DNA of 64,000 bases from an uncultured Bacilli bacterium (GCA_947632405.1 CANRPE010000002.1:1254-65253); one strand, 5' to 3'. Counted from the stretch's first letter, positions 33,121 through 33,210 are shown. A program made the numbers and translations. The notes: generated by a model not told the origin, from the sequence alone.

Positions 33121-33156
33121 CTTAGATCACTCACCTATTTTTATTTATCTAAGATT

Positions 33157-33187
33157 ATTATACCCCCCCCCGTTTGTATTTTTGCAA
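33157..33187 (-). promoter_or_regulatory. Promoter of the 180-aa gene with a G9 tract filling the -35/-10 spacer
   Basis: The minus strand reads TTGCAA (33187-33182), AAATACAAAC+GGGGGGGGG (19 nt), then TATAAT (33162-33157). The RBS AGGTGA and the ATG at 33120 follow. Confidence 0.55.
33163..33171. repeat. Homopolymeric C9/G9 tract
   Basis: Read directly as tacccccccc|c. It is the longest G/C run I saw in the window; the next longest I noticed is C6, inside an RBS at 13812. Confidence 0.95.
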
Positions 33188-33210
33188 GAAAAAACTACAC
33201 TAGAGTGTAA

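Follow-up and report, generated by a model that had tools for sequence, protein, structure and literature searches.

A run of nine Gs fills the 3' half of the spacer between the -35-like and -10 hexamers of a putative promoter in an uncultured Bacilli bacterium. The same tract-promoter design stands before dozens of related genes, which makes a slippage-driven switch of a known type probable. On balance, we think that the G9 tract acts as a slipped-strand promoter-spacer switch or rheostat, operating independently at each member of the gene family. An earlier note on this DNA had called the tract a likely phase-variation switch; its position, its purity, and its conservation across the family speak for that suggestion, but its consensus length is invariant in this species.

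We analyzed a stretch of 64,000 nucleotides (hereafter called the window), in which the tract precedes a gene encoding a 180-residue protein on the minus strand. The elements proposed at the outset, a TTGCAA hexamer, a 19-nt spacer ending in G9, TATAAT, AGGTGA, and the ATG, were all confirmed on that strand, where they read ACACTCTAGTGTAGTTTTTTC-TTGCAA-AAATACAAAC-GGGGGGGGG-TATAAT-AATCTTAGATAAATAAAAAT-AGGTGA-GTGATCTAAG-ATG, the flank immediately 5' of TTGCAA being written also as ...AATTACACTCTAGTGTAGTTTTTTC. The promoter lies 36 nt 5' of the ATG. The features are as follows.

33193..33212, minus strand: terminator-like hairpin AAUUACAC-UCUA-GUGUAGUU (-7.2 kcal/mol, z = -3.4, equaled by 0 of 200 shuffles)
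33187-33182, minus strand: -35-like hexamer TTGCAA, a 4/6 match to TTGACA
33181-33172, minus strand: non-G part of the spacer, AAATACAAAC, 10 nt, read from the sequence
33171-33163, minus strand: G9 homopolymer GGGGGGGGG (C9 on the plus strand), flush with the -10 hexamer; the proposed slippage tract
33162-33157, minus strand: -10 hexamer TATAAT, a perfect consensus, which follows the tract in nearly all family cassettes (one has TATATT)
33119..33155, minus strand: inverted repeat of the 5' leader, ATCTTAGAT (33155-33147) and ATCTAAGAT (33127-33119) (-7.3 kcal/mol, z = -2.7)
33136-33131, minus strand: Shine-Dalgarno sequence AGGTGA
33120-33118, minus strand: start codon ATG of the 180-residue ORF
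32578-33120, minus strand: the 180-residue protein gene, an intact ORF with a good Shine-Dalgarno sequence and a conserved leader

With a GC content of 24.9%, the window contains no other G/C run longer than 6, as the earlier note had remarked; a single C6 and three C5 come next, and under a first-order Markov model 0.003 G/C runs of at least 9 are expected in the window. A consensus promoter scan of the region returned 7 sites versus 9.7 expected from shuffles. The scan accepted spacers of 16-18 nt and therefore passed over the TTGCAA/TATAAT pair, whose spacer is 19 nt. Since the hexamers alone carry no significance in DNA this rich in A+T, the case for this promoter rests on conservation in related loci. 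TTGCAA is identical in the paralogous cassettes L001, L077, and L078 of the same species. We rejected a MerR-type activated promoter, with its spacer of 19-20 bp, because the spacer sequence AAATACAAACGGGGGGGGG lacks dyad symmetry, and reiterative transcription on the Gs, because the only conserved -10 hexamer is downstream of them.

The 180-residue protein gene is not a unique regulated adhesin gene; it proved to be one member of a large family that shares promoter, leader, and N terminus as a single cassette. In a protein collection, about 111 clusters had the family N terminus (a basic stretch, a hydrophobic helix, and SYTDNAKLGVxNVQAAIDGTC), and the C termini were mutually unrelated while the signal or anchor segment and the NVQAAIDGTC motif were conserved. 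Species genomes of GTDB contained 48 related loci, almost all in metagenome-assembled genomes (MAGs) labeled "uncultured Bacilli", with more than 10 copies in some genomes; the gut hosts were rabbit, Hadza, other human, and roe-deer. Although the window itself holds only this family member, contigs of sample ERZ27249300 match it exactly (0 mismatches in 2200 nt) and the sample also carries the paralogues P0002 and P0016; thus, the window's own genome has several family members. Same-species paralogues are near-identical over the terminator, the promoter, the leader, and roughly the first 60 codons, and their flanking genes differ. The best explanation is that the intergenic region is a self-contained expression cassette common to a multigene family of predicted secreted or membrane-anchored proteins of AT-rich gut Bacilli.

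Viral contigs yielded 0 matches to the family pattern, showing that the cassette is not a phage element, and a megablast search of a plasmid collection gave no match to a 5.8-kb segment around the tract. The window has the character of chromosomal DNA, as it contains gatCAB behind a T-box and a tRNA-His gene. The window's exact 32-mer had 0 matches in a first metagenome scan, and exact look-ups in a contig index did not return P0001, P0110, or P0028; the orthologous locus was reached through the neighboring Flp pilin and oxidoreductase genes. Our literature search found no description of the family or of the cassette.

The position of the tract is strongly conserved. In 450 kb of related DNA, 55 of the 62 distinct runs of at least seven Gs lay 0-1 nt 5' of TATAAT (TATATT in one of the 55) on the strand of the family gene, and the arrangement was kept before more than 50 paralogous or orthologous genes from at least six uncultured Bacilli lineages. 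In three rabbit-gut lineages, the equivalent of the -35 hexamer was a perfect TTGACA, and in the human/Hadza lineages it was TTGATT, at a modal distance of 19 nt from TATAAT. The cassette types read TTGACA-aaataagac-G10-12 in one rabbit lineage, TTGACA-atacccatcc-G9-11 and TTGACA-caacccta-G11 in two others, TTGATT-ttttcatct-G9-10 in the human/Hadza lineages, and TTGCAA-aaatacaaac-G9 in the window's species. The tract is therefore conserved across cassettes with unrelated leaders and -35 contexts. Among 35 spacers of the TTGATT type, the nine positions adjacent to the -10 hexamer were 89-100% G and the next six were 40-77% conserved. Such conservation of G in genomes of 75% A+T indicates that the homopolymer is kept pure. 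Two family promoters of a rabbit MAG (L008 and L015) have a spacer filled by a (TA)n run.

Conservation of this kind could also reflect a fixed promoter architecture, in which the G tract and the 19-bp spacing form a regulator site or a rigid G:C block and slippage is incidental; regulation of the family genes would in that case be conventional and shared, with slips amounting to rare noise that selection purges. We regard this as rather unlikely. It would account for the tract always abutting the -10 hexamer, which spacing alone does not require. However, purity is conserved even though a homopolymer of at least 9 is unstable and a G-rich site would suffice, and the spacer has no dyad symmetry. 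In addition, the L052/L053 lineage carries the family poly-G in a 5' mini-ORF, after a Shine-Dalgarno sequence and ATG, where a leader of 15 codons would be read in one frame with the family ORF at G8. This different position of the poly-G in another lineage speaks against a fixed promoter element and points to selection for mutability itself.

The genes around the tract matched the earlier placement of the 180-residue protein gene between pilus and type IV secretion system (T4SS) modules. A Tad/Flp-type pilus locus precedes the gene on the same strand and includes a T2SSE ATPase, RcpC/CpaB, two polytopic proteins, a 52-residue Flp-like pilin, a sortase, and Big_3 surface proteins. Directly downstream are genes for a FAD-dependent oxidoreductase and then a 500-residue membrane protein, and past these two comes a Gram-positive-type T4SS (a VirD4-like coupling protein, a TraG/VirB4-like ATPase, and a CHAP/glucosaminidase hydrolase, with a weak T4SS-pilin match). 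The sortase in the window and a CotE in a same-species contig mark the host as cell-walled and spore-forming.

The terminator-like hairpin overlaps the stop codon of the upstream 328-residue protein gene, the last of the Tad locus, and runs into T6 (33194-33189), the hairpin ending 5 nt before TTGCAA. With this hairpin and T-run directly upstream, the 180-residue protein gene looks like an insulated transcription unit. Nearly all family cassettes likewise have a hairpin and T-run 5' of the -35 hexamer (-11.8 kcal/mol in L033, -12.8 kcal/mol in L010). In the leader, the inverted repeat flanks AGGTGA and overlaps the first two bases of the ATG. Across 22 family leaders, compensatory changes occurred at 3 of the 5 consensus pairs of this hairpin and G-U pairs were tolerated; its outer pairs would fall upstream of a transcription start set 7 nt after TATAAT.

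These features bear on whether the tract might be a mutable relic, inherited with the cassette by duplication or gene conversion, before a gene that is effectively silent or transcribed mainly by read-through from the Tad operon; the length of the tract would then be immaterial at this copy. Recent duplication or conversion would account for the near identity of the whole cassette among paralogues, pseudogenes exist in the family (among them L024, with a stop in the signal peptide), and the upstream hairpin is weak (AU-rich, with the energy listed above), so that read-through is possible. Nevertheless, we consider a relic improbable, because the ORF is intact with a good Shine-Dalgarno sequence and a conserved leader, the tract in the window is pure while decayed copies display what neglect looks like, and the recurrence of the hairpin and T-run in nearly all cassettes argues for insulated units.

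The cassette is repeated, and assemblies break in it. In the ENA assembly ERZ27249300, the break falls within the repeated leader, and neither contig includes positions 33139-33118. The promoter is thus joined to the 180-residue protein gene by a single assembler's bridge across 22 nt of the repeated leader; the promoter copy is firmly tied to the Tad side and the gene to the oxidoreductase side. The conclusion on the promoter is unchanged whichever family gene truly follows. An artefact in the tract itself, whether two-colour Illumina poly-G or a chimeric join, is very improbable. The reliance of the promoter-gene link on one assembler's join would favor it, but the tract is contig-internal and sits at the same position in more than 50 loci across independent studies and assemblers, from samples that span rabbit, Hadza, other human, ground-squirrel, and roe-deer. 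Moreover, the Tad-side flank, TTGCAA, and G9-TATAAT are contiguous in the independent contig L080. Contig ends at G tracts were considered as a sign of length heterogeneity and rejected, as the breaks are repeat-induced: two Logan contigs stop after the seventh G, which is the end of the last locus-specific 31-mer (one unique base, 23 shared bases, and 7 Gs). Because contigs break in the cassettes, gene-promoter links in MAGs of these lineages are unreliable.

We then compared tract lengths among relatives, as the earlier note had proposed. Lengths differ among paralogues and in two orthologous pairs, but the consensus in this species is uniformly G9. One rabbit MAG has G9, G10, G11, and G12 behind identical flanks, and pure tracts among paralogues range from G8 to G12. 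One orthologous pair has G8 (L062) versus G9 (L066); the other has T8 plus G9 (L033) versus T7 plus G10 (L057), and both of its members keep a 20-nt spacer. At consensus, most comparisons of orthologues show no difference; the P0013 locus, for example, has G9 in four samples and the P0047 locus G9 in two. At the locus under study and in its species, no tract-length variation was seen at consensus level, all complete TTGCAA-type cassettes having G9 (the window, L077, L078, L079, and L080). L080 and L083 match the window with 0 mismatches in 2200 nt and so represent the same genome, not independent observations. The earlier note had named an invariant tract length as grounds for refutation, and the consensus data go part of the way there. 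As a metagenome consensus reports the majority allele only, this invariance weakens the switch hypothesis without refuting it. L001 and L002, which both read GGGGGAGGG, have interrupted tracts and keep the total length of 19 nt. The invariant consensus across this species' samples and at P0013 and the 19 nt held by L001 and L002 are what a fixed architecture would predict. Against it, pure tracts from G8 to G12, differing behind identical flanks, would be odd for a specific binding site.

Spacer lengths further constrain these readings. Pure tracts (at least eight Gs; n = 41) had spacers of 18 nt (4 cases), 19 nt (29), 20 nt (7), or 21 nt (1), and 17 nt was never seen with a pure tract. Interrupted tracts (n = 9) had spacers of 18 nt (6, including the P0010 promoter), 19 nt (2), or 22 nt (1, a pseudogene). 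The 18-nt spacer was thus found with 6/9 interrupted versus 4/41 pure tracts (Fisher p = 0.0009, post hoc and for copies that are not phylogenetically independent). Family promoters without a tract, taken from the same genomes, had spacers of 17-18 nt, as in TTGACT-17-TATATT, so that the canonical spacing rule holds for these bacteria. The non-G part varies among lineages in sequence and in length (8-12 nt), yet the total stays modal at 19 nt whatever the split between non-G and G positions (8+11, 9+10, 10+9, or 12+7). This compensation indicates that the distance between the hexamers is under selection, which supports a working -35/-10 pair. From conservation, we infer that TTGCAA and TATAAT are probably the hexamers used by the promoter of the 180-residue protein gene; the 4/6 match of TTGCAA counts against this.

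With pure-tract promoters 1-3 bp too long, the simplest reading is that their default state, including that of the window's G9, is weak or off. Judging from the locked and tract-free promoters, the window's G9 (19 nt) is probably a low or off state, one slip from 18 nt. The narrow mode at 19 nt and the L033/L057 pair could equally mean that 19-20 nt is a selected functional spacing instead of an off state. A fixed architecture would likewise explain why the spacer is so tightly modal at 19 nt in every lineage, with G and non-G parts compensating, and the increase of spacer length with tract purity (17 nt with none, 18 nt interrupted, 19 nt pure) would also fit an effect of the G:C homopolymer on DNA geometry. 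However, poly(dG).poly(dC) in solution has a helical repeat too near that of B-DNA to offset 2 bp. If the tract is a switch, its strong state may differ from the one first suggested, namely, G7 giving an optimal 17 nt. That value was a textbook expectation only, as pure tracts are mostly at 19 nt and decayed ones cluster at 18 nt; G7 with 17 nt is possible, and the family data point first to G8 with 18 nt.

At the N terminus of the 180-residue protein are a basic stretch and a hydrophobic helix (a signal peptide or an anchor), followed by the motif SYTDNAKLGVTNVQAAIDGTC, a helix at about residues 49-73, and a beta-rich variable C-terminal domain of about 100 residues. Its AF2 model is poor (pLDDT 52), with a TM-like helix at 6-33, a helix at 49-73, and six strands. 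The sole full-length homologue is P0010 (36% identity), which has a weak match to a phage minor-tail protein. A profile search of solved structures gave only a non-significant coiled-coil likeness to influenza HA2 (E = 0.08), which we discarded. No lipobox (L-x-x-C) follows the hydrophobic segment, the first Cys being residue 57 in the DGTC motif, and no internal repeats were apparent in P0001 or its relatives, whose C termini are distinct globular domains. Some relatives have Gp10_C/tail-fibre (T4 Gp10_C) or GLUG domains; the tail-fibre domains are absent from the 180-residue protein. The earlier description of the protein as anchored and fibre-like agrees with its predicted signal or anchor N terminus; the fibre-like part is weakly supported, given a pLDDT of 52, and draws on the tail-fibre domains of relatives and on the phage minor-tail match of P0010. 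It is reasonable to view the protein as anchored or secreted with a variable beta-rich head.

Homopolymers of about 9 are known to slip, and the strength of sigma-70/sigma-A promoters is controlled by spacing. In the mechanism that we propose, the terminator hairpin and T-run would insulate the cassette from the upstream Tad pilus operon, transcription would start from a sigma-A-type promoter in which a spacer with a pure G tract as its 3' half lies between the -35-like hexamer and TATAAT, and the short structured leader would supply the ribosome-binding site. Homopolymers of G9-G12 would gain or lose units through slipped-strand mispairing during replication. Because the tract is inside the spacer, each slip would shift the -35/-10 distance by 1 bp and alter promoter strength. 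The tract would thus constitute a heritable and reversible on/off or volume switch for the 180-residue protein gene, independent of other family members. G9 with 19 nt would be the family default, and the promoter would become strong once one or two Gs are lost (18 or 17 nt). A useful rate of slippage in this organism and the assignment of on and off lengths are both inferences.

A more far-reaching version of this proposal, which we find possible but somewhat doubtful, is a genome-wide poly-G "phasome". Each genome of these spore-forming gut Bacilli would hold 10-20 or more genes for tail-fibre-like surface proteins, each behind the common cassette and one slip (19 to 18 nt) from activity, individual cells would show random subsets of receptor-binding-like domains, and a sister lineage would use mini-ORF frameshifting instead. 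If this were true, it would amount to combinatorial surface variation on the scale of Vlp or Opa in a commensal Gram-positive lineage. To our knowledge, no system of that scale has been described in such a lineage.

Simple-sequence-repeat phase variation is documented mainly in Gram-negative pathogens and mycoplasmas, and commensal gut Firmicutes and Bacilli are known chiefly for invertible promoters and epigenetic switches. Mollicutes are placed within the class Bacilli in GTDB. Switching by homopolymers in promoter spacers is established, as the earlier note had stated, with precedents in fetA and porA (PMC13293289) and in vlp (PMC10502178). In Neisseria meningitidis, transcription of porA (poly-G), opc, and fetA (poly-C) is high, intermediate, or low according to the length of a G/C homopolymer (about 8-14) located between the -35 and -10 hexamers; some alleles, short or interrupted, are non-variable, and the commonest length can be sub-maximal (PMC13293289). 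The poly-C tract in the core promoter of fetA gives graded expression, and its predominant length confers an intermediate, sub-maximal level (PMC13293289). Whereas porA, opc, and fetA are single genes with their own promoters in a Gram-negative pathogen, here one cassette precedes dozens of paralogues in a Gram-positive-type commensal. The tract of the present family also differs from theirs in always abutting the -10 hexamer and in its default spacer of 19 nt, and its effect on expression is putative.

In Mycoplasma hyorhinis, each vlp gene has its own poly-A promoter (PMC10502178). Like the family described here, the vlp genes form a multigene family of separate transcription units with a conserved promoter that contains a homopolymer, a conserved signal-peptide 5' end, and a divergent C terminus; in vlp, this homopolymer switches each gene independently (PMC10502178). 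There are also differences: the homopolymer is poly-A in vlp and poly-G here, and the Vlp lipoproteins have a lipobox and tandem repeats within the chain, neither of which was seen in the window protein; C termini in the present family are globular, tail-fibre-like, or GLUG domains. In contrast to M. hyorhinis, the host has a cell wall and spores. Without a lipobox and C-terminal tandem repeats, the family is not a Vlp system. Thus, the putative mechanism resembles that of porA, opc, and fetA, and the organization appears most like that of the M. hyorhinis vlp family.

Other contingency loci share parts of the design. In Bordetella pertussis fim2 and fim3, the length of a long poly-C tract immediately 5' of the -10 region determines how far away the upstream recognition element lies; that element is a BvgA activator site and not a -35 hexamer. 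A dinucleotide repeat lies within the promoter spacer of Haemophilus influenzae hifA/B. The same holds for Vmm of Mycoplasma mycoides (PMC10502178). The 2-nt repeat unit of both sets them apart from the window copy and makes them similar to the (TA)n spacers of L008 and L015. Intragenic poly-G contingency loci occur in Campylobacter, Haemophilus, and Neisseria; the mini-ORF tract of L052/L053 is like these, but the window tract differs, since it lies upstream of the -10 hexamer and cannot act by frameshifting.

The interest of the finding lies in its scale (dozens of promoters in several uncultured gut lineages), in its Gram-positive commensal setting, and in the regularity of spacer lengths, 17-18 nt without a tract, 18 nt with a decayed one, and 19 nt with a pure one, which provides a falsifiable prediction of the "on" lengths. 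The system is directly testable from existing metagenomic reads and metatranscriptomes. If the proposed switch is real, these uncultured lineages would generate heritable heterogeneity of their surface, which would bear on immune evasion, adhesion, or phage resistance in the gut.

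The Shine-Dalgarno sequence ahead of the 180-aa gene is enclosed by the arms of a 9-bp inverted repeat that also overlaps the AUG:
33155-33147 and 33127-33119, minus strand: conserved inverted repeat, ATCTTAGAT / ATCTAAGAT.

Across 22 family leaders, three of the five consensus pairs of this repeat show compensatory changes, and G-U pairing is tolerated. Were the repeat to fold in the transcript, its outer pairs would fall upstream of a start set 7 nt after TATAAT. The window leader also carries a 4-nt tandem duplication (33133-33126), reading AGGTGAGTGATCTAAG versus AGGTGATCTAAG in the paralogues when compared with L003, L077, and L078, so that the spacing between the Shine-Dalgarno sequence and the ATG is 10 nt rather than 6 nt.

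The repeated leader is also a breakpoint in this genome's ENA assembly. Two contigs of 44.7 and 34.4 kb end on either side of it:
33118-33139: gap between the end of L080 and the start of L083, the two ENA contigs.

The 79-kb source contig of the window spans this gap. Because the ENA contigs stop at a repeated leader that the 79-kb contig bridges, the links between promoter and gene across the cassette depend on the assembler.

A second promoter-spacer homopolymer, besides the poly-G tract, was found upstream of a T4SS-pilin-like gene (28505-28954), within the 17-nt spacer of TTGCTA-17 nt-TATAAT:
28998-29008, minus strand: T11 run, within 28985-29020.

A strong terminator hairpin (-12.8 kcal/mol, z = -4.1) uses this run as its U-tail; terminator and promoter overlap in the same way in the poly-G cassette. 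Two RNA features were located elsewhere in the window:
12962-13198, minus strand: T-box leader (122.9 bits), ahead of a gatC/gatA/gatB-like operon.
5631-5706: tRNA-His gene.

Given that a T4SS module occupies about 17-29 kb of the window, the tRNA-His gene could mark the boundary of an integrative element.

In the rabbit MAG Lapin-027 bin88, family promoters read TTGACT-ttccatatatatata-TATAAT, with a 15-nt spacer in which a dinucleotide repeat replaces the G tract:
L008, about 925-960, and L015, about 2925-2960: promoters with (TA)6-7 spacers.

On five loci of the rabbit Lapin-028 MAGs (L005, L010, L011, L013, and L014), the family start codon lies ∼190 nt downstream of the G-tract promoter, behind a long conserved leader (tataataatgttataaaataaggagaaagtggag...) with a possible short uORF or regulatory RNA.

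On two loci of a Hadza-gut lineage, L052 and L053, the G7-G10 tracts of the family lie in a 5' mini-ORF, not in a promoter spacer, and are preceded by a conserved AGGAGG-ATG:
L052, 8548-8595, 9887-9925, and 11279-11320, and likewise L053: G tracts in 5' mini-ORFs.

With the G7 observed at 8573 of L052, the mini-ORF ends after 15 codons; G8 (or G5) would put it in frame with the family ORF. From the other two L052 tracts, the main ORF is reached in no frame.

Family members were also compared along their coding sequences:
P0001, the 180-aa protein (window 32578-33120), with its paralogue P0002 (L001 1015-1551).
L052 with L053 and L054, around 11280-11400.

In these comparisons, the promoter and first ∼60 codons are about 91-100% identical, whereas no relation is seen between the C-terminal domains. 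One tandem copy is swapped between samples (L052 versus L053/L054) for a 5'-truncated gene without the cassette. Domain shuffling thus occurs in the family.
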